A DNA stretch of 36,284 nt, from NCBI GenBank assembly GCA_048213135.1, contig PS015096.1:132165-168448 (forward strand). The letters are read 5' to 3'. Shown one piece after another: positions 1 to 33,645 of this stretch; position 1 is the stretch's first letter; the number at the start of each line of letters is the position of its first letter. Made by a program: the position numbers and the translations under genes. Source of the stretch: Reclinomonas americana ATCC 50394 (taxonomy: Eukaryota). The notes beneath the pieces were generated by a model. That model searched no databases. It was not told the DNA's origin and saw only the letters and a list, made by a program, of their open reading frames with translations.

Positions 1-38
1 CTTCTTCTTTGCTTACCGCTCACACCTCGCGCCTGCAG

Positions 39-1835
39 CCAACGTGTACCGCCAGGATGCGCCCGTGGCGTCGCCGGAGGATTGGGAGAATGAGTTGAAT
101 GCGTGGAAGGCACTGGACAGTGCTTGCCGCAATGAGCACAGACTGGTGGCGGTGCAGGGCTACAGTCTGGAGGAGTGGATACCGAGTCTGTGGGTGTGTC
201 GACGGGACTTGGAGAACTGGTGGCGTCGGCATCGATGCACAGTGGAGGCTCTGCGCGCTGCTGGTGTGTGTGTGTGTGTGTGTGTGTGTTCGTTGGTGTT
301 TCCGTGTCTCACAAGATCACTTCCTCCTCAAGCGGTCGAGTATGCGGTGAGGAAGCTGTCCATGTCGCCCGGCGTTCGACAGCAGGAGGAGGCTCGCTTC
401 CGCCGCCTGGCCGCGGAGATTGGCTTTGCCGAGATTGACACAGTGATGGCCGGTTTCGATGCACCATCGATTCCGGAGCCTGCGCCGCCGCGCGCACCCC
501 CGGCTGCGTCCGGTCCACCACCAGGCTTTACTCCTGTGTTTCACACCGCCGCCACCACCGCCACCACTGCTGCTTCTGCTGCGGCTTCTGCGGCTTCTGC
601 GGCTGCCAGGGCTCCTCCCGCAGTGGTTGCGAGCCACGGCGGCTTCAGTTCATCGGCGTTTGAGGATGACGCAGGCCCCAGTGTCCATCCAGTGGTGGAA
701 CGAGGTCCAGAGGTGACCCCCGGTGCGAATCCGTTCCAGTCGCAGAGCCTTGCATCAAGTTGCGTCCCTGCGCCCATGATGTGTGCATGTGTGAGCCGCT
801 CTCAATCGTCGATGGGTAGGTGCGACGGAGCGGCCGCTCACGGGTGTGCCGCAGCCTACACGTAAGCGGTCTCTTGCGGAAACCGCGGCGCAAATCGAGC
901 AGTGCGGGTTCCGCGCACAAATGTGCCCCACATTGCCGTTCCCTGATCGCGAGGAGCGCATCAAGAACTCGTGGGATATCGACCCGGCCTGGGCCAACAC
1001 GCCGAAACGAAAGCTGAAGGTCCCCTCGTGTATTCTCTTCCTTCATTGCGTGTTGTTTGTTCATCCGCCGTGCACATGCAGCTGGTCCGCATTGTGCCGG
1101 TGGTGTGCAGTACGACCACCGAAGCGGAGTTCGCTGCAGGTCCGAGCTGTCATGCAGACTGCGCGTGTGTTTCGAGTTGTCGCTCACCTGCTGACTGACA
1201 CCACAGTGGAGGAGGAGCTGCGGAGACGACTCGGGGCGCAGCCGTCGCGTGTCATTGCCTGGCACGGCACTGCGTTGCAAAACGTGGAGCCACTGATTGA
1301 GAGCGGCTTTGATCCGACTCGTCGCAAGCGTGCCGTATTCGGAGAGGGGTACGACATTTATTTTTTCTTGATGCTGTGCACGCGCAGTGTCTCACAGGCG
1401 TATCCTTGCAGCGATTACTTTGCCTACAGCCCATCGGTGTCTGCCGATTTCTGTGACGAAAATTGCACGTTGATTGCATTCGACTGTTTGGTCGAAGGTG
1501 TGTACTCCCAACCAGCGTCACTGGCGATATCACTTTCGTGTGTAACTGACAATGTCGCTGTGTGCAGGTGACTCGGTGAGATTTATCGACCGGCAGCAGT
1601 ACTTTGTGGTTTGTCGCCAGTGCATCTTGTCAAGACAATGTCCGTGAGCGCGTGTTTCACATTTTTGGTGTGCTTGGCAGGTCACGGACAGCAATCGTTT
1701 CATGCGACCCATTGCTGGTACGTGTATGGACGTGCGCTTCGTATTGCCGCACGCCCTTGTCGCTAACGAGTGTGTCACGGGTGCGCAGTTGTTGAGTTCG
1801 AGAGACCACCGAAAAAAGAGAAGGGATGCAGTGTT
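39..1835 (+). CDS. PARP-fold (ADP-ribosyltransferase-like) protein, multi-exon, 5'-partial and ending at a gap; probable mono-ART
   Basis: Exons approx. 39-263 (donor uncertain), 332-758, 820-1019, 1082-1139, 1207-1348, 1412-1497, 1568-1608, 1681-1717, 1789-1835, joined by GT-AG introns. Spliced product contains AWHGT, FGEGDYFAYSPSVSADF and QQYFVVTDSNRFMRPIAVVEF, matching the PARP catalytic-domain motif order. Ends KKEKGCSV at the gap. Confidence 0.75.
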
Positions 1836-3583
1836 NNNNNNNNNNNNNNNNNNNNNNNNNNNNNNNNNNNNNNNNNNNNNNNNNNNNNNNNNNNNNNNNN
1901 NNNNNNNNNNNNNNNNNNNNNNNNNNNNNNNNNNNNNNNNNNNNNNNNNNNNNNNNNNNNNNNNNNNNNNNNNNNNNNNNNNNNNNNNNNNNNNNNNNNN
2001 NNNNNNNNNNNGACACTGCATCCGCCCTTCTCTTTTTTCGGTGGTCTCTCGAACTCAACAACTGCGTCCCCGTGGCACACTCGTTAGCGACAAGGGCGTG
2101 CGGCAATACGAAGTGCACGTCCACACACGTACCAGCAATGGGTCGCATGAAACGATTGCTGTCCGTGACCTGCCAAGCACACCGAAAATGTGAAACACGC
2201 GCTCACGGACATTGTCTTGACAAGATGCACTGGCGACAAACCACGAAGTACTGCTGCCGGTCGATAAATCTCACCGAGTCACCTGCACGCAGCGACATTG
2301 TCAGTTACACACGAAAGTGATATCGCCAGTGACGCTGGTTCGGAGTACACACCTTCGACCAAACAGTCGAATGCAATCAACGTGCAATTTTCGTCACAGA
2401 AATCGGCAGACACCGATGGGCTGTAGGCAAAGTAATCGCTGCAAGGATACGCCTGTGAGACACTGCGCGTACACAGCATCAAGAAAAAATAAATGTCGCA
2501 CCCCTCTCCGAATACGGCACGCTTGCGACGAGTCGGATCAAAGCCGCTCTCAATCAGTGGCTCCACGTTTTGCAACGCAGTGCCGTGCCAGGCAATGACA
2601 CGCGACGGCTGCGCCCCGAGTCGTCTCCGCAGCTCCTCCTCCACTGTGGTGTCAGTCAGTAGGTGAGCGACAACTCGAAACACACGCGCAGTCTGCATGA
2701 CAGCTCGGACCTGCAGCGAACTCCGCTTCAGTGGTCGTACTGCACACCACCGGCACAATGCGGACCAGCTGCATGTGCACGGCGGATGAACAAACAACAC
2801 GCAATGAAGGAAGAGAATACACGAGGGGACCTTCAGCTTTCGTTTCGGCGTGTTGGCCCAGGCCGGGTCAATATCCCACGAGTTCTTGATGCGCTCCTCG
2901 CGGTCAGGGAACGGCAATGTGGGGCACATTTGTGCGCGGAACCCGCACTGCTCGATTTGCGCCGCGGTTTCCGCAAGAGACCGCTTCCGTGTAGGCTGCG
3001 GCACGCCCGTGAGCGGCCGCTCCGTCGCACCTACCCATCGACGATTGAGCGACTCACGCATGCACACATCATGGGCGCAGGGACGCAACTTGATGCAAAG
3101 CTCTGCGACTGGAACGGATTCGCACCGGGGGTCACCTCTGGACCTCGTTCCACTACTGGATGGACACTGGGGCCTGCGTCATCCTCAAACGCCGATGAGC
3201 TGAAGCCGCCGTGGCTCGCAGCCACTGCGGGAGGAGCCCTGGCAGCCGCAGAAGCCGCAGAAGCCGCAGCAGAAGCAGCAGTGGTGGCGGTGGTGGCGGC
3301 GGTGTGAAACACAGGAGTAAAGCCTGGTGGTGGACCGGACGCAGCCGGGGGTGCGCGCGGCGGCGCAGGCTCCGGAATCGATGGTGCATCGAAACCGGCC
3401 ATCACTGTGTCAATCTCGGCAAAGCCAATCTCCGCGGCCAGGCGGCGGAAGCGAGCCTCCTCCTGCTGTCGAACGCCGGGCGACATGGACAACTTCCTCA
3501 CCGCATACTCGACCGCTTGAGGAGGAAGTGATCTTGTGAGACACGGAAACACCAACGCACACACAAGCACACAAACACACACA

Positions 3584-3644
<61 letters not shown>

Positions 3645-3662
3645 GCACGCAGACGCCTCCAC
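242..3662. repeat. About 1.6 kb inverted repeat (arms 242-1835 and 2012-3662) around an N gap
   Basis: Direct comparison of arms; mirrored ORFs in the ORF track (846..1571+ and 2279..3088-). Confidence 0.9.
2012..3662 (-). CDS. Second, inverted near-identical copy of the PARP-like gene (allelic haplotig or recent duplicate)
   Basis: Reverse complement of about 242-1835 with scattered SNPs, a longer (TG)n and a 3-nt GGC insertion near the C-terminus (KKEKGGCSV). Same intron positions. Bounded by N gaps on both sides. Confidence 0.65.
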
Positions 3663-3809
3663 NNNNNNNNNNNNNNNNNNNNNNNNNNNNNNNNNATGTG
3701 AGACAGCAACTTTTGTGTGTTCAAGAAACCGTCATCGGCAATATACTGAACGGCGAGGCAACAAGGGAAGGGATAGGGAGAGGAGGGAGGGCATGTGGTG
3801 AGACACACA

Positions 3810-6800
3810 TTACTCGTCGTCGACCTCGGCCCAGGCTGCGCTCTCCGGGTTGAAATCCGTGTCAATGGCCTGGCAGTTGACAATGGCGAACAGAATGCGC
3901 TCGCGAGTGATCTCGTACGTGGGCCACATTGGCAGATCGAGCGAGAAGAAGCACGTGTGTGCCACCGGCAGTGTGCCGGTAATGTCACCCGAGCCGTGGA
4001 ACTTGTTGATGGTGAACGGCGAGTCCCATTCTTCGTCGGTGGAGGGCATGCGGTTGCGTCCCCACACGAAGCGCAGGAACAGGCAGCGCTCCGCCGGCGT
4101 GAACGACTCCAGCGCACGCCACATGAACTGCACTGTCGGCGTCGACGCAGCGAGGCCACTGTACTTGGTGTGCTTCTTCAGCACAGCAACATCCACATCC
4201 GGTTTGCCGCACTGCACCGCAACAAAAAAATGAGTATGCGCAGCCGAGGGTGGTCGCGTGGGTGGGTCAGTTTAAACGCAACAATCATCAACTCCATCTC
4301 CGACCAGGAGAACAGCTTGAGAACACGCATGGGAACCATCTGGGAGAGGCCGGCGCGGATGGCGGCAATCTGCAACACACTCTCGCGGAGGCGCGTGTGC
4401 AGCACCAGATCTGCGAACTCCTCCTTGTTCTCGAACCTGTGCAAGACACATTAGCGCACAAAAGAACGGACGAATCTCATGCACCCGCCCGGTGAAGCAA
4501 CGCACGTCACGTGGATGTTCTTGCCGTTCTTCTTCAGCTCGCGCTCCGAGCCGTCACTCAGCTGCGTGTTGAAGGTCTCCATGAACACATCGTCAAACGA
4601 CTCCTTGTCGGTCTTCTTGAGCTCCTCCAGCGCTTGCACGCAAAGCTTGTCGATGCTCTCCAGATCGTTGCGATCGACCTCTTGTTCGAGCTGCTCGAAA
4701 GAGTCAAAACACACGAATCATACTTTGACACACAACCTCGAACGCACCACTTGCTTCCACACAAACGGCGGCAGATCCAGCGACAGTGGGTGACGTGTGC
4801 GCAGCGAGATGCCCATCATCGTGCCCACGAACTTGAACATGTCGAGGGCCAGTGCCGACACGGCACTCGGATTCGGCACCCACTGCAACACGAGCAAACG
4901 CACTGGTGAGTATACAATCCCCCCTCCACACTTTGTGTGCAGCGCCAAGTCGCACCTTTTCGCGGTTGACGCCGAGGCTGTGGCGACCGTTCGGGCATTG
5001 CACGAACAGTGGCGTGGCGTTCGACATGAGGTCGCCGCAGGCCAGCGTGATTGACTGTTTCACACATGCACTCATCAGCAACAGCACACGGAAGCATTTG
5101 CACGGCAGCATTCTCACCTCACGGTACGGTCCACTATCAAGGCACAAGACAAAACACACACACAAACGAGAATGGCGGTGAGGAAAAAACAGTCAAACGC
5201 GACGATGACAAGCAGGCAACACGCACCCGACATCGACGGAGCCCTCGCCCTGGTCGAGAGACGAATCACATGAGACACACGCGATGGCAAAGCGGTCAGT
5301 ATGAGCACGGCAAGACGTACCACAAAGACAGCGTTCCAGAGCTGGTGATCGCCCTTCAGGTCGTCGACCTTGGCCTTTTGCAGACCCGTGTACAGCTGAC
5401 CGAAGATGGACTTGATGCCGGTTGGATCCTTGCCCGGCTCTGCGATGCCACTCACCATCAGCGACGTATGACACATGAAATATTCGTCGATTCGCATCAG
5501 CGCGCACCGTCGCGCATGCGCTGAGCGCGCATACGATTGATTTCGACACGGACTTGGTTGAATCCGATGCCAGTACGCGCGCTGCTCGCCATGGTGGCCT
5601 TGATGACTCCGTCCCAGAAGGATTTCTGTGCAGCGTGTGAACCATAAGCACTTGAACAAACTAGACAGCGAGCGTGTCACGCCACGCACCTTGGTCTTGA
5701 AGAAGAGGCCGGCTCGATTGCGCAGAATCATCTGACTGAGCGACAGGCTGTCGTCCGAGTCCACGCCCGACAGATCGCAGAACGAAGCAGCGGCGTCACC
5801 GACTTGTTGAGTTGCTTCACGAGAGCCATACGTGCACGAATCGTTTCGATGCGTTGGACGCGCTAGCGAGACGAGATACGAATGATGAGTGCAACGCACA
5901 GTCGACAACGACGTCAACTGCAAAATCGAACCTGCAACTGGCTGAAGCGCATGAGATCCTCACGCGACGGGCGCAGCATAAAGACATCAATGTCCTCCTG
6001 CGGCAGCGCCCAGCGCTCGGCAAACACCTCCGACTGCACGCAACTGTGAGCAGAGGCGAAACACGCAAAATAACAAGTGCTCTCCGTGATCTCACCAACT
6101 CGANNNNNNNNNNNNNNNNNNNNNNNNNNNNNNNNNNNNNNNNNNNNNNNNNNNNNNNNNNNNNNNNNNNNNNNNNNNNNNNNNNNNNNNNNNNNNNNNN
6201 NNNNNNNNNNNNNNNNNNNNNNNNNNNNNNNNNNNNNNNNNNNNNNNNNNNNNNNNNNNNNNNNNNNNNNNNNNNNNNNNNNNTTTTCCACAGGGACGCG
6301 TCGACGACTGTCGGCATGGCATTGGATCTGGACAACCGCAAGATGTACTTTACCATCAACGGCGAGAAGCGCGATCTCGACTTCACCAACGTGGATCCTG
6401 GCGACGGTGTGCACCCGGCAGTGTGCGGCAACGGCAGCGTGTCGTGCAAGATCAACTGGGGCGCTCGCAAGTTCAAGTTGCGTTTTTCGACGACTCTCGC
6501 TCTTGTGTCTCCTGGTCTGACGCACAATTGCCGATTCACGCCACAGGTACCCGATTCCTGACGGCTACCTGCCGATTGAGTGCGAGGCCGCACCGGGCGG
6601 TCTCAACTGGATCGACAAGCTGGTGACCTCGTACCGCACCATTCGCCTGATGAACGAAGAGGGCCAGTTGCCGGAGGAGCTGATCGACCTGGCGCTGCGT
6701 GCCGAGGGCACTCCGAAGGAGACGTCGCTGGTGTTGGAGGCTGTGTCCTCCGACAGTCCGGCCACCTCCGACGTGTACACGCTGGCGCAGCTGACAGAGG

Positions 6801-9800
6801 AAGGCAGTCAATGGTCGTGCTTCAAGACCAAGAACGTGCACGTGGTGTTCAAGATGGAGGAGGACCAAGAGTTCATCCTCACGCAGTTCACCGTCTCGGT
6901 GCCGGTGTACTGCTCGTCGCCCGTCAAGACCGGCATGGTGTTTGTCACTCCCGGTGAGTCCTTCTTTTCCTCCGCTCTCATAGGTCTGCTGGAGTTCCTC
7001 ACCCCTCTGTCTCGCGTCGCNNNNNNNNNNNNNNNNNNNNCACACGCCTCCTCGCGAAAACGCAACGCTCAAGCTCCTCCGGCGTCAGTTCCAAGATTTC
7101 GCGACGGCCAGACTCCTCCGCATCGGAGCCCGCAGCCTCCGACTCGTCGCTCGACTCGGACTCGTCGTCACTCTGCAAGGTACCCACCCGTGAGTCAATC
7201 AATCCCCGCCACAATATTCAGAGTGAGAAACGAAACTGGCATAATGTCGGCCATGGTCGGCAGAGGCGGACCAAACAACGGATTGTCGGGGTCATCGTCC
7301 ACCTCACCGTCCAGCCCAATGATGCCACCAGAGGGACCGGCGCCGGATTCGTCGTCCACGTCGGCCTCGTCGTCACCGTCGTCGGAGGGTGCATCATCCT
7401 CGTCCGAGGAAGCACCACCGCCACGCTTGCCACCTGTCCTCCCCCTTAGTCAGTGTCAGCGTCACAAGGCCAAGCGAGGGATGTGACGCAACCCTTGCCA
7501 CCAGCCGGCTTCTTGCTGCCGTGGCCGCTGCCATCCTTCTTGTCGCCCTTCTTCTTGGCTGACTTCTTGTCCTTCTTCGCCTTGTCGGTGGCGTTGCGCG
7601 ACTCCTCGTCGGGAATGTCAGAGTCGGCGCCGAGAACGTGACGTGCCACCAACAGCAGCTCCAGGGCACCGGCAAAGAGTGCCGGCGCAGCGCTGCTTGC
7701 ACCTCCAGTCCACTGCGATCGGTCCACACCGTGGTGCTTGTCCAGTTCTGTCGGCAGCTTGTCGAGAAGCTGGAGCAGCACTCCGTCAGTCACTGACAAA
7801 AAAGACAACGAAAGCGAAGACAGTGTAGAAAGAACCTTGACGATCTGCAGCTTGGTCGCCACAGCATCGGGGGCCGCCGAGTCGAACTCGCGCCACCGGT
7901 GGAACATCTGGATCAGGCGGCTGATGATGCGGCGCGGCGTCGTGCCACTCGCGTGCGGCAGCGCATTCAGCAGTCCCATGATCATCTGTCACGCCGCACA
8001 GTCAACAAAGGGGGGAGAAAAACACACTGGCAAGAGCACAGCAACGCACCGTGTACGGCAACAGCGGTCGCTCTGGGCGCATCAACAGCGCAGCGGTGGC
8101 CAGTGCCGACTCGAAACTCGACTCAATGTCGCCGCATCGAGTGCCGCCAGCAACAACAGCAGCCGCGGTGAACTTGTAGCCCCACGTGCAGTAGTTGTAT
8201 GCATCGACGCTGAAGTGAACCCTGCGTAATGCGGAAAAAAACGTCAGCAGTCACGCGTCATGAACCTGGCAACTGCGGGTGCAAACGCACCAGAGGTTGC
8301 TGCCATCGTAGGTAAAGTCGGAGAAGTTGGAGCCGGAGAACTGACGCACTTGCTCAGTGCGCGCCTCATCGCGGTAGAAGCGCATGTAGTGGTTCGGGTT
8401 GGTGGTCGTGCTCGGGTCGAACNNNNNNNNNNNNNNNNNNNNNNNNNNNNNNNNNNNNNNNNNNNNNNNNNNNNNNNNNNNNNNNNNNNNNNNNNNNNNN
8501 NNNNNNNNNNNNNNNNNNNNNNNNNNNNNNNNNNNNNNNNNNNNNNNNNNNNNNNNNNNNNNNNNNNNNNNNNNNNNNNNNNNNNNNNNNNNNNNNNNNN
8601 NNNNNNNNNNNNNNNNNNNNNNNNNNNNNNNNNNNNNNNNNNNNNNNNNNNNNNNNNNNNNNNNNNNNNNNNNNNNNNNNNNNNNNNNNNNNNNNNNNNN
8701 NNNNNNNNNNNNNNNNNNNNNNNNNNNNNNNNNNNNNNNNNNNNNNNNNNNNNNNNNNNNNNAACTGGCCAAAGTTGTCTGCACACGGGAAGGCACGACT
8801 TTAGCGCAGCCCGAAGATCAAACCAACTGAACATTAACAACAACTCACCAACAGACAAGAGGTTCGGCACGACCTCAGGCACACGCAACACGGCGGCCAG
8901 CAGGCGCAGCACGGTGGCGGAGAGGAGCGAAATCAGCGTTGTCGACAGGACGGCCTGGCGCGAGGCCGAAGACGGCGCAGCCTTGTCTTCTTGGATGGCG
9001 AAGCGCGTCAGCAGCGTCAGCGTGCCAACATCGCCAAACTTTTGCAGGGCATCGTGTGGCGGAGGGGCCTGTGGCAGGAATTGTCAGTATAGCACAAAAA
9101 AAAAAGAAAGAAAGCGGCAGGGATGGCATCAAACCTCCGGCAACGGGACCACGTCCGTCAACGGCGCACTCTCGATCTTGGACTCGCCGTCGCGCACAAT
9201 CGACACCTTCTTGTCGGCCATGTTGTACTCAACAATGGTGCCGACATAGTCGTCGGTCTTGCGGTAGGCACGGCCACCGACACGAATGACATTGTTATCG
9301 CCACCTGCACAAATGGGAGGCAGTGAGCGAGGCTTTCAAAGATGCAGTTGACGGCAAGTGCAAACCGAGAACGGCAGCGGCGGCCAATGCGGCCAAGTAG
9401 CGTCGCCACTTGCTGTCGTCCCACTCCGACACATCCACCGACTCGCTGCTCGCCACGGCGCTGAACTCATCCAGGGGTGCGAACGACGCATGCAAGGTCT
9501 CGCACGCGACCGGTGACTGACGCGGGGACACGTGAGTGACAAGAGGGAGAGAGGCAGACAGAGAGAAGAAATGTTGTGCAACGCACCCACAAATCACTGG
9601 AGAGCAGAGTGCGCAAAAAGGCAATCAACTCGGCCGAGGTGATGCTGTGCTCGCGAAGCACAAAGTTCTGCTCCGTCACCGCCATGCCCAGTCGCTTGCG
9701 TTTCACAAAGGCGGCCTCCGGGAACGCTGTGAACATACCACACAGTGTCAGCAGCTGCCAACCAGCCAGTACAGAGCATCGCCAGTACGCAACATGAGGC

Positions 9801-18565: not shown

Positions 18566-18636
18566 TTCACCATTCATTGCTACTGCCGTTCCCTGCACGC
18601 AGAACGACGACTCGCACGCACATTATCACGCAGCCA

Positions 18637-19867: not shown

Positions 19868-22694
19868 ATGGAGGAACCCTCTGCTCCTACCCCACCCCCA
19901 CCACCACCCCCACCCCCACCAGCTCTTGCCACCTCAACAACGCAGAGACAACTCGACGTCGACAATCCACCTCCACAATCCATGGACGAAGACGCACCTC
20001 CAACAGCAGCATCCTCCTCACAACAACAACAACAACAACAGCAGCAGCCCGTAACACGTTCTGTAAACACCACTACTGTAATCGCCGCTGCAGCTGCCGC
20101 AGCCGCAGCAGCCGCCGCGGCTGCTGTCAGTGGCAACACTGATGAGGCACAGGTGTCGTGTTTTTTTCGCGCGCGCCTCTTTTTGTTCTTCCTCACACGC
20201 CGTCTATGAGTGTATGTGTGCTCACTGTGCTCACTATTGAACAGCTGAGTTCTCTGCTGGGCTCTGTTGTCAACGCGGCAGTGGCGGCCGCAGTCAACAA
20301 GGCGCCAGTGCGACAGAGTGAAGGTACGTGTGTGTATGTGCTTGTCAGAGAGAGAGCAGTGCGTGTGGGCACAGTGCGTCTTGTCTGTCGTCAGTGTCTC
20401 GATTCAGTCTGACCGCTGTGTGCGCGGGAATTGCAGATGCCGATGCGCCTTCGTTGGCGGCCGATGCTGTGACGGTGTGTTTTGTTTGTTTGTGTCTTGC
20501 TTGGTGCTTTGATGGCTGACTTGCGCTGTGTTGTGTGCAGCGTCGACGATTGTCCGAGTTGGTGCTTGGCTGTGCGATGATTGGTTGTGTGGCGCGTGTA
20601 ATTGCTTATCGTCTGTCTCTCTCTCCTTCTCCTATTGTGTGTGCTGCAGTCGGCTCTGTCGCGACAGGATCTGATGGCGGCGGCCATGGCGCGACGCGAG
20701 GGCGGTGCTGCCGCCGGTGGTGGTGGTGGTGCAAATCGATGGCGTCCGATCCGAACCGTTGAGGATGCAGAGGCCTGTGTTCGACAACTCATGCGATCGA
20801 CTCCTGCTGCTGCTTCTTCTGCTTCCAGTGCTGCTGCTGGTCAGCCGCCACCTCCGCCGCCGCCTCCTGCTCTCCCGTCCTCCTTGTCGTCTTCGCTGGA
20901 GGTGGGCGACAGTGGTTTGCCGGGCGACAATAGCAGCGGCGGCGGCGAGGGGCGACCGTGGGGTGTGCTGGTGCCGCAGTTTTCGCGTCCCACCGGCATT
21001 CCATCGGCATCGATTGTGCTACGCAACAGCAGTTTCTCTGTCGGGCGGGCGCGGCAGTGTGACCTGATGCTCCGCGATTCGCGCATGCCGATCAAGCCGC
21101 TCTGCTCCATCCATGTGTTGCACGGGCAGCCGCTGATGCGCTCCAACACCAATCGCACGCCTGTTCTGATCAACGGGCGCCAGCTGCGCAAGCAGCAGCA
21201 GTCGCCGCTGCACTCGGGCGACGAGATCAGTGTTCTGGGATCAACCGTCTATCAGTTTGTTGCGTGTTCATCTCTCACGCTTTCCTCCACTTCTTCTACT
21301 CTCCCTTGCCAAATGCATGCTTGTTGTAGATCTTTGTGCGCTACGACGACATACCCGCCTCCAAGCACACATCTCAGGCGACTGCCATCACTCCGCGAGT
21401 GACACCACTGGAGACCACCGAGGTGGCCACCGACACAACCATGTCTGCCGCACCAACTGCTGTCACCGTCGCCAGCGGCGAGGATACCGAGATGAGTGAG
21501 ACGACGACGGCATCAGAGAGTGTGCCAACTACAACACCACCAACAGCAGCAGCAGCACCTTCGACAAGCGTCGGGGAGCCGCTGACGCGCAAGCGTACCC
21601 TCGATGACATGCGTGGAGACATTGTCACCAAGGATGAGGTTTGGAGAGAATTCCACGCACCTCTTTCGACCGCACCCTCACTGTGACACTGTGCCCGGCA
21701 GTCGGAGTCGGCACTCAAACGCAGCAAGGCAGCAAGCACCGATTCACTGCTGGCCGACGACAAGGACGGTGAGTAGCCGCATCTTCATGAATGCACCCCT
21801 TTGCGGTTGTTAATTGACTGTTGCGTGTCGCAGAGAGTGGACTTGCCGGCAGTGGTGATGAGTTGTCGAGTGCTCTGGAGAGTGCCGTCGACGGCGGCGC
21901 TGTGGTGGAAGACGACGATTCTCGCCGCGAGGCTCTTGTTGCCGTGCGTACCATGCTTCACGAGGCCGTCACCCGTGCCACGGATCTCGGCGTGACACTC
22001 GACACCTTCCCGTATCATCTCTCGTTGCGTCGCTCCCACCAGAGCTTCGGCCTTGCTGAGGTAGGCAGAGAGGACTCACCGCACGTGCAGTCCGGCCGTT
22101 CGGGAAGAGCTTGTGCGATCCATGGGTCTGTACCTCGAGAACCCGCATGCAGCGCAGTACATCGAGCACCTGTCGTCAGTCAGTCAGCGCATTCTTCTGG
22201 TGTCGCCGAAAGGTTGAGTGTGACTGAGCGACGATAGATTGCGAAGGTTTCTCACTCTGTTGCTCGCTGCAGGAACCACACGCTACAACGAGCAGCTGTG
22301 CATGGCGCTGGCGCATCATTTTGGCGCCGACTTGTACCGGCTGGATGCTGTTTCCTCGCGCAGCATTGCCGATGAAATGGAGGAGCAGGAGGCCGGCGAG
22401 CGCCGAGGTTGGTGCACCAGCAATCGTCTGCACGCCAGCTCTACTGTTAATTAATGAGCTGCTCTTTGTCACCTCTTGCAGACGGCGGCTCCAACATCTC
22501 CGGCTCCCGCAGTGGCGCCAGCTGCCGCGTGGGCGCCAAGGTCGAGTTTGCTCGCACANNNNNNNNNNNNNNNNNNNNNNNNNNNNNNNNNNNNNNNNNN
22601 NNNNNNNNNNNNNNNNNNNNNNNNNNNNNNNNNNNNNNNNNNNNNNNNNNNNNNNNNNNNNNNNNNNNNNNNNNNNNNNNNNNNNNGGTGGTAC

Positions 22695-22770
<76 letters not shown>

Positions 22771-25700
22771 CTTTGCATATATATCGCTTCCTGCTTCTGA
22801 CACCTCGTCGTCGACACTGCAGTGGTGCGCATCCTGTTCCGCTTCAATGCCAACACGATTGGCGTGGAGTTTGACGAGCCGTTTGCGGGCGGTCACAACT
22901 TGGCTGGTCTCTGCGAACCTGGTCGCGGCTACTTTGTCAGCATGGCAGACCTCACGATTCTCGACCCCGGTCCAGAGCCCGCTGTCGGATCCAGCGCGGC
23001 TTCCGTCTCCGGCACATCGGACGATGAGGATGTGCCCATGATGAGTGGTGCCGGGTCGGAATCGACTGCTATCGGTCGTCTGGCGGCCAAGTTGCGAGAT
23101 GCTGTCCCCCCTGTTCACTGTATGTGTGTGTTTACTGACGATTATCGCGCAGGGTCGACGTGGAGAGTGGTGAGGCGTGGACGCGACCAGGAGATGGTCT
23201 ACCGACCGATCTCGCGGCATCGGATCGCTCGTCGGAGGTGCCAGGCGCGGGTATGTGGACGGCCGTCGTGATGCGGTCGGGTCCTCCGTCAACATCGCGT
23301 GCGTCATTTGGTTTGTTTGTTGTTTGCTCNNNNNNNNNNNNNNNNNNNNNNNNNNNNNNNNNNNNNNNNNNNNNNNNNNNNNNNNNNNNNNNNNNNNNNN
23401 NNNNNNNNNNNNNNNNNNNNNNNNNNNNNNNNNNNNNNNNNNNNNNNNNNNNNNNNNNNNNNNNNNNNNNNNNNNNNNNNNNNNNNNNNNNNNNTTCGCC
23501 CTCTTGGCGGTGTGCACTCCTCTGACTTGCGCGACAGACAAGAACATGCCACCGTCGCCGCCACGCCCGCCGCCAATGCCTCCATCTGCATCCTCCTCGT
23601 CCATGTCGGGCATGGGAGGCAGCGGCAGCAGCAACAGCAGTGCGCGACGCCGTGTGGTGATTAGTATGTACGACGCGTTGGCGGCAGCCGGTTCGCCAGT
23701 CATGCCACCACCGCCGCCGCCACCATCGATATCGTCGTCGTCTTCGTCGTCTTCGTCTGTGCATTCCGTTCGTATGATACCTGGTGCGTTGTTCTGTTCA
23801 TCGCACATGCTTGCCCTGTCGTCCACTCACCACTTGCGCAGCGTCTCGTTTGGCGATGCGTTCTTCGGGGAGCTCGAGTCGGTCGGAACTGGCATCGGCG
23901 GTGGCTTCCGACTCTGTCACCAAGACGGCGTTGCGGTAGTTGCGTACCTCTCCGACTGCATTGTCACGACCCAATTGGCTCACCTCCCTTGGCTGTACAC
24001 GCAGTCGTGCCTTCTTTGAGGAGATTGCGCGTCGACCAGCCGAGGAGAAGATTGTCGTGTACATACCGGCAGTGGACGAGATTCTGTCCACCACGCCGCA
24101 CTTCATGCGCGATCTCCGCGCTTTCATGTCCAAGATCCAAGGTCACCAAGTTTGCGTGATTGGTGAGTATGGGGTCGCGACTGCTGTGCCGTTCTTGTAT
24201 TCAGCGTCGCTCACGCTGTGTTGCAGCCTCCAAGGTGAACGACTTGGATCCGAGTTCTGCTCCGTCGTCGTCGCGGTCGCTGTCGTCGTTGCTTCTTGGC
24301 GGTCTCGGTGGTCCCGGTGGTCAATGTGCGTGATAATATGTGTGCCGCGTGCTTTGCTCTTCGCTCACTCCGCCGCAGTGTCGAGCGTCTTGGGCATTCC
24401 AGTTGAATCGTCGAGTTCGAGCAACGCTCTGGCAGTGACGGCATCTGTGGCAGGCGCGTACACGCTCCTCTTTCTGTTCAATCACCGTGTTACTAATATG
24501 GTGTCCATCTGTGTCGCAGTTCCGGAGCCACCTCGCGACGGTCGGCCGAGCAGTCGCATTGTGCAGCGCATTGCAGCCTCCAACGTGTCGTCCATGGTCA
24601 ACGATATGGAGTTGCGTGTGTTTGTGTCTGTGCGTGTACATTCCACTGTTGTGTCTGCCGCTCATCTGTTGCGGTCATCAGTGGCTTGATGCTGTTCGAG
24701 CGCAACACAATGGAGATGAAGCATTTGGTGGAGAATCTGTTCCCGCATCGCGTGGCCATCACCAAGCCAGCGCACTGGGCACAGGTTTGTGTGTCTTCTC
24801 ATATGCTTACTGCTGATGCAACTGTTGCTCAACGAATGACACTGGCACAGGCCGCCGAGTGGGACACACAGATGCAACGCGACACGGAGCTGGATCGGTG
24901 TCGTCGCAACGCAAATCTGTTCCAGTGGGTCATGGCACGCAATCGCATGCAGTGCATTTCGTTGCCGGAGGCACAGCTTCGAAAGGAGACCCTGAGCAAG
25001 TCCACAGTGGAAACCGTCTGCGCGTGGGCCCTCAGCACAGAGCTCTCCAAGTCCCACAAGGTTGAGGTGGCGACCGAGGAGCCTGCAAAGACAGTGGCGG
25101 AAGCAGAAGTCGCGCCCATGGAGACGGGTGACTCGGAGACTGCTGCAGTAACAACAACTACAACAACAACAACCACTGCAGCGGCAGGGGCGTCTGCCGA
25201 AGGGCCCGCGCCGGTGCGACAGCTGGTGCTGTCAGGCGAGAGTATGGTGGCCGCCATGAATCTGTACGACTCGTTGTTGCGCGAGCGCTCGCCACCAGTT
25301 TCGTGCACTGACCTTTCTCTCTTTATCTCAGTTGGTGTGAATGTTGTCTCGCCGCTCACGCCCTTTTTTGTGATGGCTTGCAGAAATCGCTGCAGGATGT
25401 GGAAACCTCGAACGAATTCGAGCAGCGGCTGCTGGCGGATGTGGTGATGGCTGACGACATTGGAGTGCACTTTGATGGTGTGTGGCGGGCATTCTGCTGA
25501 GATTCATGTCACTGCGCGCATTCTCACTTTGCTGTTGCAGACATTGGTGCTCTGGAGTCGACAAAGAATGCTCTGCGCGAGCTCGTCATGCTGCCACTGC
25601 AGCGACCGGAGCTCTTCCGGCGGTCGACACTGTCAAAGCCGGTGAAGGGTGTGCTGCTGTTTGGTCCGCCGGGTACGGGCAAGACCATGTTGGCCAAGGC

Positions 25701-26639
25701 TGTGGCCACAGAGAGTGGCGCCAACTTTCTCAGTTGCGCCCGCGCTCTCGCTCCCTCCCTCTTTTCTATACAGCGCTCACCCTCCACCCACCCTCCCACA
25801 GACGTCAACCTCGCCGCCATCACCAGCAAGTGGTTTGGCGAGGCGGAAAAGGCGGCTGCGGCAGTGTTCACTCTTGCTCGTAAGCTGGCACCGTGTGTGA
25901 TTTTCGTCGACGAGATCGACAGCATGCTCGGCAAGAGGGCGAGTCGCGGCGAGCACGAGGCGATGCGGAAGATGAAGAATGAGTTTATGATGGGCTGGGA
26001 CGGTCTGAAGAGCAAGGAGACTGGTACGAGTGCATGTCGAGAGATCGCTGTGTTTCTTGTCTGCGCACTCACACACCTCAATGAATGCAGAGCGCGTGCT
26101 GGTTCTCGGTGCCACCAATCGCCCGTTCGACCTGGACGAGGCCGTGCTGAGGAGAATGCCTCGTCGCATCCTCGTCGACTCGCCAAGCGAGGAGCAGCGA
26201 GTGCGCATCTTTGAGGTGATCCTGAAGGACGAACAGTTGGATCCGGCGCTGCGCATGCTCGACCTGGCTCGCATGACGCCGAGCTACTCGGGCAGCGACC
26301 TGCGCAACTTGTGTGTGTGCGCAGCCTATCAGGTACTGTTCCACCACCATCCATCCTGTCGCATTGTGTGTGCTCACCGTGCCACCTCAGCCTGTGCGCG
26401 AGTTCCTCGCCGACGAGGCCAAGCAGATCAGCAAGGGTGCATTTGTGGCCCCGCCAGATCCCACAGCACCGGCACCGGAGCTACGACCGCTGCGACTGTC
26501 GGACTTTGAGAAGGCACAAAAGGAGGTCAGTGCCAGTGTGTGCGAAGACGCACAGACCATGACGGAGCTGCGCCAGTGGAACGAGATGTACGGTGAAGGA
26601 GGCAACCGACGAAAAGAGACGCTGACGTACTTCATGTAG
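19868..26639 (+). CDS. FHA-domain AAA+ ATPase (ATAD1/Msp1-related C-terminal AAA module; architecture known from plant FHA-AAA proteins)
   Basis: Low-complexity N-terminus; FHA-like region (PWGVL...FSVGRARQCDLML...VLINGRQL...LHSGDEISVLG); FPYHLS...QRILLVSPKG...ALAHHFGA; IGVEFDEPFAGGHNLAGLCEPGRGYF; AAA core VHFDDIGALE...[30 protein letters not shown]...IFVDEIDSMLGKR...VLGATNRPFDLDEAVLRRMPRR...WNEMYGEGGNRRKETLTYFM, stop TAG. Confidence 0.9.
22696..22765. repeat. (TG)n microsatellite, intronic
   Basis: Perfect GT run inside an intron of the AAA gene. Confidence 0.9.
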
Positions 26640-26714
26640 AACCAGTGAAGTGTGCCATGTGCTATACACGTTTATAAGTACCCTTGGTTGGTTGTTTTTG
26701 CCATTGGCCCCCGA

Positions 26715-29284
26715 TCAACCCCTTCCCACGCGGCACATCTTCATGGCCCACCGCAACTCGTCGAGTGTGGCCTCCCTCAGTGGCTTCCCTGCATACGTGT
26801 ACACCTTGCGCTCCTCCGGATTCAAGTATCCCTCACCCACATCGAAGCAGCCGACCGGCAATGGATTCGTCTTCTTGTCGGTCAGTTGGGTGTCGCCTGC
26901 AGGAGGAGGATGGGTGATGAGAAGAGAGGGAGAAGGGAGGGAGGATGAGAGGAGAGGGAGAAGGGAGAGAGGGCGGAAGAGAGACAAAATGAGCAGTTCA
27001 CAGAGCGAGAGAGGGCAGGACAGTGGAGGCATGAGATGCGAGAGAGAGAGAGAGAGAGAGATAGAGAGAGAGCGAGGAAAGAATGAGACAGAGAGAGCAA
27101 ACGAGCAAGAGATGCATGTTCGCAGTGAGCAGGGGGAGAGTGTCTGCATGATGTCGTGACTTCCAAGACAGTCGAACTTCCACGACAGCGCATTTGTTCT
27201 CTTCTACAAGTCTCAGTCAACTGCTCTGAGACTCCCGTCTCTGTCACCTGCTTCCAATCACTGTCTCGCACGACGACTTGTCGAGCTTCCGCGACAGCGA
27301 ACTGTTCTCTCCTGCCTGCGGTCACTGTCTCCCCTCTTCTCTCCTCCTCTCTCCGGTTCTCCCTTAAACACGACGCAGTCCAGCTGACACGTCGAGTTCC
27401 CACGACAATGCACGGCTCTTAGCAGCCTCCAGTCACTNNNNNNNNNNNNNNNNNNNNNNNNNNNNNNNNNNNNNNNNNNNNNNNNNNNNNNNNNNNNNNN
27501 NNNNNNNNNNNNNNNNNNNNNNNNNNNNNNNNNNNNNNNNNNNNNNNNNNNNNNNNNNNNNNNNNNNNNNNNNNNNNNNNNNNNNNNNNNNNNNNNNNNN
27601 NNNNNNNNNNNNNNNNNNNNNNNNNNNNNNNNNNNNNNNNNNNNNNNNNNNNNNNNNNNNNNNNNNNNNNNNNNNNNNNNNNNNNNNNNNNNNNNNNNNN
27701 NNNNNNNNNNNNNNNNNNNNNNNNNNNNNNNNNNNNNNNNNNNNNNNNNNNNNNNNNNNNNNNNNNNNNNNNNNNNNNNNNNNNNNNNNNNNNNNNNNNN
27801 NNNNNNNNNNNNNNNNNNNNNNNNNNNNNNNNNNNNNNNNNNNNNNNNNNNNNNNNNNNNNNNNNNNNNNNNNNNNNNNNNNNNNNNNNNNNNNNNNNNN
27901 NNNNNNNNNNNNNNNNNNNNNNNNNNNNNNNNNNNNNNNNNNNNNNNNNNNNNNNNNNNNNNNNNNNNNNNNNNNNNNNNNNNNNNNNNNNNNNNNNNNN
28001 NNNNNNNNNNNNNNNNNNNNNNNNNNNNNNNNNNNNNNNNNNNNNNNNNNNNNNNNNNNNNNNNNNNNNNNNNNNNNNNNNNNNNNNNNNNNNNNNNNNN
28101 NNNNNNNNNNNNNNNNNGTGCGAGAGGGAGGAGAGAGGTGACTGCTGGCAGACGCGAATGAGAGAGACTGGTAGATGAGTACAGTGCGCTATCGTGGAAG
28201 CTCAACATGTCAGCTGAACTGCGTTGTGCGAGGAGGCGAGAAGAAGACGAGATGCTGTGGAGGCAGAAGGGTGGAAGCAGGCAACAGAGACCCTGACGAT
28301 GTCGAGAGAGAGACTGGTGGCAGATGAGAACAGTGCGCTTTTGTGGAAGATCGACAAGTCAGCTGAACTGTGTTGTGTGAGAGGGAGAAGAGGAGAAGAG
28401 AGAGGAAGGGGGAGAGAGGAGACNNNNNNNNNNNNNNNNNNNNNNNNNNNNNNNNNNNNNNNNNNNNNNNNNNNNNNNNNNNNNNNNNNNNNNNNNNNNN
28501 NNNNNNNNNNNNNNNNNNNNNNNNNNNNNNNNNNNNNNNNNNNNNNNNNNNNTCCAGTCACTGCCTCCCCCTTCCTCTCTCCGCTTCTCCCTTTCACACG
28601 ACAAAAACAAGTCCAGCTGACAAGTCGAGTTCCCACGACAACGCACTATTCTATCCTCTCTCAGTGTCTCTCCTGCTTCAAGTGCCACTCATCTTCCTCC
28701 AGTCACTGCCTCCCTCTCTCCCCCCTCCCTCCTCTCCTCCTTCCCTCTCTCCCCCTCACACACTCACCAGCAGGATAGATCTTGCCCAGGATCTCCGTGT
28801 AGAATCGCCGATCCACCTTGGTGCTGTAGCCCCACGACGACACATCCAAAACACGCCCGTGCTGGTTGGGGAACTCGCCATACTCCAGTCCATCGCCAAA
28901 GAAGAAGCGTCCACGCACTTCCTTGCTCTCATCCCACTCGGCCTCGTATCGCGCTCCGTCGGGAAACGTCAGCGTGCCCTTGCCGTGGAACCTGAGTGGG
29001 TGGTGTCAGTGGGAGAAAAAGAAGCAAGAGAGAGAGAGTGAGAGAGAAGGCAGAGGAAGAGTGTGTGTGTGTATGTGAGAGGAAGAGGAGAAGAGAGAAG
29101 GCACGCAACATGCCATCCTTGAATCCACCCTCGTACACACGCCCATCCGCGAGTGTGAACTTGCCATGGCCCTCCATTCTGCGTGATCGCGTGAGTCTTT
29201 CTGTGATGTGCACTATGCGGATGTACATAACACAGACCGGCCATTGACGATGCTGCCTTCATACTTGACGCCGATCACATCCAT
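26715..29284 (-). CDS. MORN5: MORN repeat-containing protein 5
   Basis: Exons 29284-29238, 29177-29110, 28991-28768, 26896-26715 give MDVIGVKYEGSIVNGRMEGHGKFTL...KDGMFHGKGTLTFPDG...FGDGLEY...VDRRFYTEILGKIYPAGDTQLTD...CFDVGEGYLNP...ELRWAMKMCRVGRG, matching recalled MORN5 hallmarks (GRMEG, KDGMFHG, DRRFYTEI, PAG-QLT). Confidence 0.9.
27151..28730. repeat. Degenerate tandem repeat array (about 110-150 nt unit, about 40 nt conserved core) in MORN5 intron 3
   Basis: Core CAGT(T/C)CAGCTGAC-nn-GTCGAG(C/T)T(T/C)CCACGACA-n-(C/T)GCAC at about 27171, 27275 and 27376 (+), 28182-28221 and 28331-28370 (-), and 28610 (+). Confidence 0.75.
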
Positions 29285-30872: not shown

Positions 30873-30918
30873 AATCACCGTCGCACTCACTTTGTTTGCC
30901 TGCACATCATGGTCACTG

Positions 30919-33645
30919 TCAGGTGTACTGTTGAAGCTGCGCCACCACCGCCGCCTCCTCCTCTGTTAATGGTGGCTCCACCACCGGCTTCCACTCCGGA
31001 CGACGACAGACGATGCTACTGGGTGTGCTGCTCACGGAGAAGGCGTGTTGGCATGCAGCTGGAGACAGGCACAGCGCTTGCCAGGCTTCAATAGCGCCCG
31101 CGTGAGTCTGCGCGGCTTGTTGTGGTGTCGGCGATGCAGGCATGGTCTGCAGCACTCACTGCAATCAGCCACGGCAGCAATGGGAGGCAGACAATCACGG
31201 AAACGCAACCGGAAGAGTGAATTCAGTCACCCGCGGTGCATTGCTGCCCGCAGCCGGCGACGACGACGACGATGCCTCCACGTCCATCAGTGTCGGCAGC
31301 TGTAATATCGGCGCACCCAGAAGCGACGTGCGGGTGGCTAGTGCTTCTAACCACTGCACACACACACACCCATCGTGACGTCAGCAGGCGAAACGCACTC
31401 TGCGCTCTCACTCCCCATCAACCAGCCGGCGCAACTTCCGTGGCCACACTGTGTGAGACCTCGTCGGCCGGCAGCCGATTGACGAACGACACCAAATGCG
31501 CCACATCGAGCGTCCACTGCGAGTGACGACCGCGCGAGGGAAAGAAGCTCAGGTAGCGGCGGCACACGGACTGTGCTCCGACAGAGAGTCAGCTGGAGTG
31601 CAGCAAACTCGACACTCCTCACCAACGCTCTCACCTGAAACGACGGCCACAGCAGGGCGTCGAGAACAACACGACGTGTCGGCAGTGGCACGTGACTCAA
31701 CTCGTGACGGAAACGCGTCACCAGCACCATCCACAACGACAGACCGCGAGTGCACCGTGAGGTCTTTAGCAGCGCGTGGTAACTGTCCCAGTCTTGCTGC
31801 AGTCGTGCGCATTCAGTGCGCGCGGTGACGACTGCGGAGGAGCGAGCACGTGTCTCTCACCTTGTCGAGATCCGAGAACACAAAACTGGTCATGTTGGTG
31901 TCCACCCGCTCGCTGACAATGTGCACCATCGCCGCCGAGTGCTCCAACAGCATGGCCTCTAATTCAAACACTGTCGTCGACGGAGGGATAGAGAGAGATA
32001 CGACGTCACCACCTATCGCAGAAGACACACTGCCGACTGAATTCGCACACCTTCATCACCACCGGCGGCAGCGGCAACACGCAACGGTTGTAGAGCCACC
32101 ACTGTGCACACCATACCGAGAAGACGCAGTGCATCACGTGCCGTCAAGGACGAAAAGAGCGGACACGTAGACGGCGGCGTATCACATATGCACAAGAAGG
32201 ATATCTGCTTGTGAGAGTGGCCAGGCCGCCGCTGCATCCGTCTCCTCTCTGAATCGGTCACCGAGGACTCGCGTGACAGACGCCAATGCTCTGGACTGAA
32301 ACTCTGCTTACCACCATTAGTCACCCCCAACAGCTGCACAGGAGAGGCAGCTGCGTGTACACTCACCGGCGTCGGTGATGCCATGCGTGAGCAGAGCCAC
32401 CAGAATACTCAAGCAGTTGAAGAAGAGCGTGCTGTCCTGCAGCATGCTGTCGATGCACATGGTCGGCAGAAGCGAGGGATATAAACGCGCACAAAGTACG
32501 CAACTGGCGGAACGAGTCGCGACTCGCCGCGTGTTGCACACAGGACCGGTACGGTAATCTCATGAGAGCATAGTCCAGTTCCACTGCGCATTCTTATCTT
32601 CAGCACGAAGTGCGCGCAGGTCGGAAGACTGAAGCAACAGCCGCACCCTCCCATCCGGGCTCCAACACATGCTGCGCCATGTGCGTGACGGTGCTCTGCA
32701 GCACCTTCGGCACCACCTCCACCACAACAAACGGCACGCGGCCAGTCATTCGCATCGCCGTGTGGGCCAAATGCTGAGCTCCCTCTACCAGTGCCTTTTG
32801 TTGTGCATGCGTGTGCGCGAGTGATGAGGGCGCCGACACGGGAGCAATGAAAGACACGCGCTCGCTCCCGCACCAACATGCACACCAACAGCGCCGACAG
32901 CGGTGCCGATCCGGACTCGCCCTCGCCACACTGCTGTTCGTACACGAGACCCAGCAGCACCTGCAGCCAGTACGAGAACTGCGGACGCGGGTTGATGTTG
33001 CGTTGCTCCCAGTTCACCAACAGTCGCGGCAAGTACTCCTGCCTCGTACGAATGAGACAGCCGGAGGAGCGACAAAGAGCAAGTCAACGCAACATCCACC
33101 GCGGATCGAAACACTCGCACGTGATCAGTCTCCCCGCTCATCGCGGTGCGTCGGTGCGCCAGCAAGATCTGCACAAACTACGAGCAACTCAGCACAAGAA
33201 GCCCAACTCATGGCAAGGCCGAGAGAGAGAGAGAGAGGCATACCCACAGACATCGCGCCTCATCATCAAACAAGGTCGACAAGTCGCCCAGCTTCTCCGA
33301 CACCGGCACCAGCACACCAAACGAGTGCAGAATGGTCTCAAAGCGTTCACTACAACGCGCATACACACACGCACAGTGAGCAATGTCGGAAGAAGATGAG
33401 AATGCGATGGAATGCGCAACGATGTGGGCGAACTGCCACCGTCTCCCAGTGGTGCCACTGCCACCGCACCCTCATCCAACGCCGCAGCAGCCTCACGCAA
33501 CACGCGCTCTGCGTCTTCGCCACTGCCTTGCACACGCTGCACTCTCCCACACATGAGCACACTCTTCCTGTTGTCTCCCTCCCCCGCATCGCACCTCCAT
33601 CAGCTGCGCGAGGAACGCTTCGAGGCCTGCATCCGCAGCACTCAT
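30919..33645 (-). CDS. Hypothetical multi-exon protein, no recognised domain
   Basis: Chain of short GT-AG introns with phase-consistent exons from MSAADAGLEAFLAQLME to ...VVAQLQQYT (TGA at 30919). The structure around 32300-31970 is unresolved. Confidence 0.6.

Follow-up and report, generated by a model that had tools for sequence, protein, structure and literature searches.

Models of 5' splice-site choice treat two features as near-universal, namely a fixed five-base distance from the cleavage site to the intronic G and the mutual back-up of the exon-final G and the G at intron position +5 (PMC11162779, PMC8283771). Cleavage has been thought always to occur 5 nucleotides (nt) upstream of the G:C pair made with U6, the first proposed exception being the tandem donor of STAT3 exon 21, with a distance of 4 nt (PMC11162779). 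Pairing with U1 is known to be more flexible: in the shifted register an intron starting with GU carries the consensus one base further in, and the U1 pairs are displaced by one while cleavage remains at the GU (Roca and Krainer, 2009, as cited in Tan et al., 2016, PMC4856993). Here we analyze a window of 36,284 bases from the nuclear genome of the jakobid Reclinomonas americana ATCC 50394 (assembly GCA_048213135.1, contig PS015096.1, positions 132,165 to 168,448 of the forward strand), in which a large set of introns begins with GTTGCG, i.e. with a donor that reads as the common GTGCG with one additional T.

The closest described counterparts of these donors are the human shifted-register sites, which likewise combine a GU start with the consensus one base further in. 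In human, this is one of several alternative U1 registers (PMC4856993) and its core is of the AAGU type, whereas in the window it would serve about a quarter of the introns with a GCGU core. The bulge registers, in which pairing leaves out one U of GUU in a loop and is otherwise that of an ordinary donor (Roca et al., 2012; Tan et al., 2016), could also hold here. Bulge +2/+3 accounts for 54-68 and bulge +3 for 36-51 of 201,541 human 5' splice sites, a total below 0.1% (Tan et al., 2016, Table 3, PMC4856993), as against 17 of the 72 filtered introns of the window (see below). The bulge +2/+3 counts agree with a first-pass annotation of this DNA, made from the sequence alone, which had held that shifted or bulged pairing is known just for rare sites. 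The STAT3 exon-21 donor resembles the proposal made below in that the pairing of the U6 ACAGAGA box is displaced by one base relative to cleavage; however, it is a single human site with a 4-nt distance, whereas the displacement here would run in the opposite direction, to 6 nt, and be class-wide.

A G-C-G core following the GT, as found in the ordinary donors of the window, is also seen in the Mamiellophyceae, where GTGCGT(G) donors have been described as an 'atypical consensus' in Ostreococcus (PMC2483917) and Micromonas (PMC3879977). The portions of these two reports at hand mention no T-inserted form. Moreover, the Ostreococcus introns with this consensus are 'intron-poor structures' (PMC2483917), whereas the window is intron-dense and its ordinary donor class is far more varied. 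U12-type introns likewise form a second donor class beside the main one, but the 3' signals of the GTTGCG introns are those of the ordinary introns of the window. In the full-text literature, supplements not covered, we found no paper treating GTTGCG as a donor or describing the nuclear splice signals of Reclinomonas. The promotion of a known rare register to a co-dominant class would be new.

The first-pass annotation had listed 21 introns starting with GTTGCG. The hexamer is present at all 21 positions on the strand given, as well as in the mirrored copy at 3089(-). Across both strands the window contains 55 copies, against 32.88 +/- 5.55 in dinucleotide-preserving shuffles, none of which (0 of 100) reached 55. 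Of the copies within the map of gene strands, 42 lie in sense and 11 in antisense orientation (p=2e-5), and for the heptamer GTTGCGT the corresponding counts are 26 and 3. The heptamer also occurs on the sense strand inside parsed exons, at 8889, 33501 and 32085 (-); hence, it is insufficient by itself to make a donor.

Introns were parsed with a small Viterbi gene finder that combines codon log-odds with GT or GC donors and AG acceptors, allowing intron lengths of 35-400 nt (35-250 nt in the mixture runs). Even when it was blind to donors, having neither a donor nor an acceptor matrix, GTTGCG emerged as the top donor hexamer, with 8 of 76 and 9 of 78 introns under two settings. Training of a single donor matrix by expectation-maximization (EM) drifted off the motif (from 8 to 6 introns), with GC donors three bases downstream being called at 13870, 19114 and 33417. 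Single-matrix EM was replaced by a two-component donor mixture with random starts, begun from the donor-blind parse. One component (66%) prefers G at -1 (.65), G or T at +3, T, C or A at +4, G at +5 (.90) and T at +6 (.58). The other (34%) is T+3 (.92), G+4 (.92), C+5 (.73, with A at.17), G+6 (.82) and T+7 (.70), with G at -1 in just.18.

The final mixture parse has GTTGCG in 20 of 86 introns before filtering. Fourteen rows were dropped, ten of them judged false or spurious and the others duplicates from the second copy of a PARP-like gene; one of the dropped rows, at 28767, later proved real, with a GTGAGT donor and a distant acceptor. The 72 introns that were retained comprise 45 with G at +5, 17 with GTTGCG, one with GTTGAG and nine others. 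The earlier estimate that about a quarter of the introns use GTTGCG holds in both the filtered and the unfiltered set (about 24%). The parse has identifiable errors: it called a false GTTGCG donor at 25276 (a copy absent from the first-pass list, which we rejected as a donor), gave 31435 a wrong 36-nt acceptor, chose 26315 instead of 26333, read through past two stop codons and mis-parsed the PARP region at 1055-1129. The observation of abundant GTTGCG introns is confirmed.

We then assigned the 21 listed sites to groups according to the evidence available for each: one is proven by a protein derived from an expressed sequence tag (EST), six are fixed by homology, eight are supported by reading frame and 3' signals, and of the remaining six, half are ambiguous and half are cut off by assembly gaps (Table 1). 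The strongest case is in the MORN5 gene. Its first 110 residues match exactly those of P0175, an open reading frame predicted from the R. americana EST EC790585.1 (EukProt EP00694). This identity by itself assigns the window to R. americana or to a very close relative. We enumerated all pairs of intron borders, with any dinucleotides, that reproduce these 110 residues, and obtained 24 combinations (6 placements of intron 1 by 4 placements of intron 2). The sole GT..AG placements among them are 29237-29179, with an ordinary donor, and 29109-28992, with the GTTGCG donor. The spacing of the MORN repeats across the latter is exact relative to the PDB chain 6t4r, with residues 13-34 in the exon, residue 35 in the split codon and residues 36-73 in the next exon.

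For the homology-fixed sites, we built hidden Markov models (HMMs) from 76 full-length FHA-AAA homologues and 51 HECT homologues, and used them to score all GT/GC..AG candidates near a predicted junction that kept the frame and contained no stop. At 4282, in the HECT domain, tblastn pieces of the transcript-derived homologues P0125, P0127 and P0134 adjoin (at residues 1575/1576, 1683/1684 and 790/791, respectively) precisely where window positions 4283 and 4211 are joined, with no residue lost or gained. The Pfam HECT profile runs from 137 to 187 and then from 188 to 301 across the two exons, and the HMM scores the GTTGCG junction at 158.0 and the GC alternative 3 nt downstream at 152.3. Similarly, at 19117 the Pfam Ribosomal_L22 profile extends from position 1 to 24 up to the last residue of exon 1 and from 25 to 104 starting with the first residue of exon 2. 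Three further sites are each the top-scoring candidate under the FHA-AAA HMM: 25733 (of 30 in-frame candidates; 220.6 vs 211.5 for the GC donor at +3), 22024 (of 66; 41.9 vs 35.5 for the GC donor at +3) and, with a weaker margin, 21259 (of 14; 25.5 vs 22.2). At 6477, 28 candidates were compared by their blastp scores summed over the three SPRY-HECT homologues P0125, P0127 and P0134, and the GTTGCG junction came first (94.8 vs 90.9); its alignment with P0125 is ungapped over the junction. The statement that several boundaries are fixed by protein conservation is thus borne out, six of them to the residue by homologues or Pfam profiles, in addition to the EST-derived protein at 29109. Removal exactly at the G of GTTGCG was shown by that protein for one of the 15 curated introns and by residue-exact homology for six more, giving seven firmly fixed sites.

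The eight sites of the next group (759 with its counterpart 3089, 7492, 9793, 13873, 16752, 31209, 31435 and 33420) have an open frame on both sides, a CAG or TAG acceptor and usually a branch-like motif. None of them has a same-phase GT with G at +5 inside the intron or up to 27 nt upstream; for 759, the single GT of this kind is found 36 nt upstream. At the three ambiguous sites (15850, 24611 and 32504), by contrast, such an alternative donor is present 9-27 nt downstream. The first-pass annotation had itself set apart 7066, 13272 and 15026 as lacking an acceptor on account of gaps, and we find the same.

As comparators, ordinary donors were fixed by the same means in the HECT domain and at 25478 and 26024 (homologue HMM). 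The homologue HMM also places a donor of a sister form, GTTGAGT, at 22213 (top of 39 candidates; 52.0 vs 40.1). Another homology-fixed donor, at 26333 (104.5 vs 88.2), is without G at +5 and stands outside the GTTGCG class. Two donors read by eye in the PARP-like genes also look atypical, at about 1021 (aag/GTCCCC) and at 1139 (cag/GTCCGA). The tolerance for donors may accordingly be broader than two classes.

The GTTGCG donors do not arise from chance combination of independently varying positions, a possibility that the first-pass annotation had raised as a potential refutation: among the filtered introns of the window, TGCG at +3 to +6 is observed in 17 of 72, against 0.91 expected from independent positions, and in 20000 column permutations the count never reached 17 (maximum 6). 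GTTGCG(T) is a real, abundant and distinct class of GT-AG donors, with T+3, G+4, C/A+5, G+6 and T+7, and no tail of the ordinary G/GT[G/T]NG[T/A] (a slash outside brackets marks the exon-intron boundary here and in Table 1). All GTTGCG sites have C at +5, in place of the G that is usual for U2-type donors. The proposed decomposition into GT + T + GCGT is upheld, and the sister form GTTGAGT mirrors GTGAGT in the same way. When GTTG[C/A]GT is compared with GTG[C/A]GT, everything from +3 on agrees with the donor consensus of this species at an offset of one base. The claim that the other common donor is GTGCG(T/C/A) needs to be qualified: GTGCG is indeed the commonest ordinary core (12 of 45 ordinary donors in the filtered parse; 15 of 31 in a hand-picked list), but the ordinary class is broader, namely G/GT[G/T][C/T/A]G[T/A], with the cores at the 45 filtered G+5 donors being mainly GC (12), TT (9), GT (8) and GA (7).

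The two classes also differ on the exon side. In the filtered parse, an exon-final G precedes 3 of 18 GTTGCG donors (counting the corrected 31435) but 33 of 45 ordinary ones (p=5e-5). Since the parse itself might be biased towards G at -1 in ordinary donors, the count was repeated on junctions fixed by complementary DNA or homology, where it is 0 of 7 for GTTGCG and 6 of 7 for ordinary donors (p=0.0047); the latter are 4955, 4747, 4505, 25478, 26024, 29237 and 28767, the last of which was read by eye. Hand-picked lists of 15 GTTGCG and 31 ordinary introns show the same pattern (3 of 15 vs 29 of 31). The loss of the exon-final G in the GTTGCG class is a new observation.

By contrast, the 3' parts of the two kinds of intron are alike. 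All 15 curated GTTGCG introns begin with GT and end with AG. Their acceptors are 12 CAG and 3 TAG (29 CAG and 1 TAG among the ordinary introns). A branch-like CT[C/G/A]A[C/T] is found in 13 of 15, at 11-27 nt from the 3' splice site, as compared to 23 of 31 ordinary introns, at 11-30 nt. The median lengths are 70 and 67 nt, respectively. Donors of both classes alternate within single genes, MORN5 for example having GTCTGT, GTTGCG and GTGAGT in succession. In an all-against-all blastn of the 15 intron bodies there was no similarity beyond 8-10 nt (the best being 10 nt, E=0.025), and hence they are not a copied, introner-like family. U12-type introns are defined by an RTATCCTT donor and a TCCTTAAC branch. 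We rejected a U12-type assignment for the GTTGCG introns, which show no RTATCCTT-like donor and no TCCTTAAC-like branch, their branch motifs being CTGAC, CTCAC and CTCAT as in the ordinary introns.

We consider it probable that the GTTGCG introns, a genuine abundant GT-AG class, are removed by the same major spliceosome in a register displaced by +1, either shifted or with a bulged U; this reading is based on the sequence patterns described above. In such a register, G+4, C+5, G+6 and U+7 of GUUGCGU would take the places of G+3, C+4, G+5 and U+6 in GUGCGU. When GUGCGU is laid on the U1 5' end printed in PMC9311317, it pairs at G-1, G+1, U+2 and G+3 (a wobble), skips C+4, and pairs again at G+5 and U+6. 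With U1 in the shifted register, the whole helix would slide, G+1 taking the partner of G-1 and U+3 that of U+2. In the bulge +2/+3 register, one U would be looped out. Either way, the last four contacts would be restored. With U6, the ACAGAGA box would pair with G+6 and U+7, and the distance from the cleavage site to the G:C pair would grow from 5 nt to 6 nt. In the shifted register there would be no dependence on the exon-final G, its U1 partner being taken by G+1. In a bulge register that G would remain useful, yet the GTTGCG class is depleted of it. Because the shift predicts the loss of the exon-final G and the bulge register does not, we lean towards the shifted register.

Several points weigh against a displaced register. 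Duplex modelling with the canonical U1 5' end (PMC9311317) finds the GTTGCG sites weak in every register (-3.5 to +0.5 kcal/mol), with no register standing out for them, while the ordinary donors range from -1.4 to -11.8 kcal/mol in the same modelling. A scan of the window with Rfam at gathering thresholds gave no matches, so that no U1, U6 or U5 gene lies within it, and we infer the register from sequence statistics only. The tolerant or variant U1/U6 snRNA, or altered proofreading of the 5' splice site, proposed in the first-pass annotation is likewise conjecture. There is no general '+1 slip': the ordinary donors include GTTTGT and GTGTGT, yet none of the 26 copies of GTTGTG is a parsed donor, and the GTTGCG class admits just G[C/A]G as its core. 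The first proposal of an alternative U6 register itself dates only from 2024 and concerns a single human site displaced the other way (PMC11162779). Finally, the data come from one 36-kb window, and the counts beyond the validated sites come from our own parse, in which the mixture favours the motif once it has been learnt.

The stronger form of the proposal is that there are two co-dominant registers, with about a quarter of the introns pairing one base further in with both U1 and the ACAGAGA box of U6 (or with a second variant of U1/U6), being cleaved 6 nt upstream of the G:C pair, and receiving no aid from an exon-final G or a G at +5. We put this forward tentatively, as a possibility somewhat short of even chances. 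If true, it would be the first natural +1 register of U6 at genome scale, and in a lineage to which a position close to the eukaryotic root is often given.

As an alternative, a dedicated small nuclear RNA (snRNA) variant, that is a second U1 and perhaps U6 with a 5' end complementary to GUUGCGU, would give two flavours of small nuclear ribonucleoprotein, each working in the canonical register. It would suit the fact that the GTTGCG class is sharper than the ordinary one, with five near-invariant positions (T.92, G.92, C.73, G.82, T.70), that it has no need of the exon-final G, and that its predicted pairing with canonical U1 is weak in any register; a similar idea was raised by Irimia and Roy for the GTGCGTG donors of Ostreococcus (PMC2483917). 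However, the branch, acceptor and length are alike in both classes, which moreover alternate within single genes such as MORN5, while the Rfam scan found no snRNA gene in the window. On balance we regard it as unlikely. We are more doubtful that GUUGCGU is an independent motif unrelated to a displaced GUGCGU, recognized either by a protein (through a contact of the U1-C, LUC7 or Prp8 type) or during late selection by U5/U6, and resembling the ordinary donor through base composition. The parallel between the pairs GTTGCGT/GTTGAGT and GTGCGT/GTGAGT speaks against it, as does an exon-side change of the kind expected of a one-base shift, even though two findings are in its favour, namely that the other ordinary cores (TTGT, GTGT) are not seen with an inserted T and that C+5 mismatches U1 in every register.

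The introns could also be GC-AG introns starting three bases downstream (GTT/GCGT...), the exonic GTT adding one residue; the reading frame would be kept, and it is to such donors that the single-matrix EM drifted at the three sites given above. This reading is contradicted at seven sites, by the EST-derived protein, the HMM or blastp scores, or profile abutment: GC donors are missing from the 24 boundary solutions that reproduce P0175, they score lower at all 5 scored sites (by 3.3-9.1 bits at the four HMM-scored ones and by 3.9 summed blastp bits at 6477), and they would break the exact abutment of profiles at 4282 and 19117. We hold it to be very improbable. An over-called T turning GTGCG into GTTGCG might be entertained for a gappy draft scaffold with 17 N runs, but an error rate of that order would riddle the exons with frameshifts, and the exons align to their homologues without them; the motif is also present in both PARP copies, and the preceding exon base differs between the GTTGCG sites and GTGCG donors. 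With the exons intact and the exon-final base different, such a sequencing or assembly artefact is contradicted, and we assign it a vanishingly small chance.

The GTTGCG class is without either of the two G residues on which the models of donor choice rely, yet it makes up about one intron in 4. It is thus a natural case in which to gauge the latitude of U1 and U6 in their pairing register, and to learn whether that latitude comes from variant snRNAs or from protein factors and whether the two-class state is ancestral or derived in Discoba. In practical terms, gene finders that rely on a single donor matrix will place GTTGCG introns wrongly, as happened in our single-matrix run, where three of them were shifted to false GC donors.

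Table 1. Introns, donors and genes of the window (window coordinates; the exon bases before the donor are in lower case)
Feature	Positions	Strand	Donor	Remarks
MORN5 intron, 118 nt	28992..29109	-	cat/GTTGCGTG	transcript-level proof
HECT-domain intron, 71 nt	4212..4282	-	att/GTTGCGTT	homology-fixed
Mitochondrial-type uL22 intron, 73 nt	19045..19117	-	cac/GTTGCGTG	homology-fixed
AAA ATPase domain intron, 69 nt	25733..25801	+	tca/GTTGCGCC	homology-fixed
FHA-AAA gene intron, 67 nt	22024..22090	+	ctc/GTTGCGTC	homology-fixed
Intron at FHA domain end, 71 nt	21259..21329	+	ttt/GTTGCGTG	homology-fixed
Intron at SPRY domain end, 70 nt	6477..6546	+	caa/GTTGCGTT	homology-fixed
PARP-like copy 1 intron, 61 nt	759..819	+	caa/GTTGCGTC	>240 open codons on each side
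PARP-like copy 2, counterpart of 759	3031..3089	-	same as in copy 1	
Giant HECT-protein gene intron, 59 nt	7434..7492	-	agg/GTTGCGTC	donor-blind parse; CTGAC branch motif, CAG acceptor
Intron, 67 nt	9727..9793	-	cat/GTTGCGTA	donor-blind parse
Intron, 71 nt	13803..13873	-	cca/GTTGCGTG	donor-blind parse; read-through stop at +16; no alternative GT
Intron, 68 nt	16685..16752	-	gcg/GTTGCGTG	donor-blind parse
Unknown-family gene intron, 63 nt	31147..31209	-	ccg/GTTGCGTT	read-through stop at +12
Intron, 82 nt	31354..31435	-	gaa/GTTGCGCC	read-through stop at +15; CTGAC branch motif, CAG acceptor
Intron, 71 nt	33350..33420	-	atc/GTTGCGCA	donor-blind parse
Ambiguous candidate intron	15763..15850	-	GTTGCGCG	in-phase GTCTGTT 27 nt downstream, chosen by final parse
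Ambiguous candidate intron	24611..24681	+	GTTGCGTG	in-phase GTTTGTG at +9 and GTCTGTG at +15; homologue HMM does not discriminate
Ambiguous candidate intron	32447..32504	-	GTTGCGTA	in-phase GTGCGCG at +12; no branch-like motif
Motif before gap	7061..7066	-	GTTGCGTT	20 nt before the gap
Motif before gap	13267..13272	-	GTTGCGTT	
Motif before gap	15021..15026	-	GTTGCGTG	
Sister-form intron, 60 nt	22213..22272	+	aag/GTTGAGTG	GT + T + GAGT
Ordinary intron in MORN5	29179..29237	-	ccg/GTCTGTG	sole GT..AG placement reproducing P0175
HECT-domain ordinary donors	4437..4955	-	4955 aag/GTGCGA; 4747 gtg/GTGCGT; 4505 gac/GTGCGT	each the top HMM candidate
Donor without G at +5, outside the GTTGCG class	26333-26390	+	cag/GTACTGTT	homology-fixed
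PARP-like gene copy 1	1-1835	+		inverted relative to copy 2
PARP-like gene copy 2	2012-3662	-		
Giant HECT ligase gene	3696-17314	-		with SPRY block
SPRY-coding contig	6284-7020	+		between gaps
Mitochondrial-type uL22 gene				
FHA-AAA ATPase gene	about 20000-26640	+		
MORN5, last exon	26718-26903	-		
MORN5, last intron	26902-28767	-		about 1.87 kb
Protein kinase gene				
Cyclin gene				
Gene of unknown family	30937-33760	-		

The window, part of a gappy draft scaffold, has 17 runs of N and 30,637 called bases, and represents a compact, intron-dense nuclear genome with a G+C content of about 57% in its gene-rich parts. Its genes were recognized through Pfam families or homologues. The two PARP-like copies are near-identical, face each other over a 176-N gap and have identical introns; they are either a true palindromic duplication or a scaffolding artefact. 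The contig coding for the SPRY domain lies on the strand opposite to the HECT gene that surrounds it. In the transcript-derived homologues P0125 and P0127, SPRY and HECT are found within one protein, and this 737-bp contig is probably inverted in the scaffold. The N-terminal part of the giant gene (10 exons) and the gene at 30937-33760 (4 exons, one chance-level match) returned no Pfam family. Both also have almost no relatives; for the giant gene, a representative search that used its longest exon gave 3 matches, none of which spans another junction. A metagenome scan with the AAA exon recovered 13 loci at 37-72% identity, with 34-61% G+C and 0-1 GTTGCG per strand, and no relatives among them. 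The intergenic stretches at 17335-18600, which separates the 5' end of the giant gene from the 3' end of the uL22 gene, and at 33760-34492 contain many simple repeats of the (TG)n, (CT)n and CTT/CCT types.

Intron density in the window is very high, with roughly one intron of 55-90 nt per 150-300 coding bases. In the jakobid Andalucia godoyi, introns are present in just 12% of 864 curated genes, i.e. it is intron-poor, and all of them are GT..AG, no donor analysis being given in the part of the report at hand (PMC7050145). Intron load hence differs widely within jakobids. In the last exon of MORN5, 60 of 62 residues match P0175; the two that differ (K for Q and G for R) may reflect a strain difference or an EST error. 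The intron that precedes this exon, fixed by the same EST-derived protein, is exceptionally long against a local norm of about 70 nt, and contains two gaps together with purine-rich or repeated blocks in both orientations (e.g. at about 27140-27437 and about 28118-28423).

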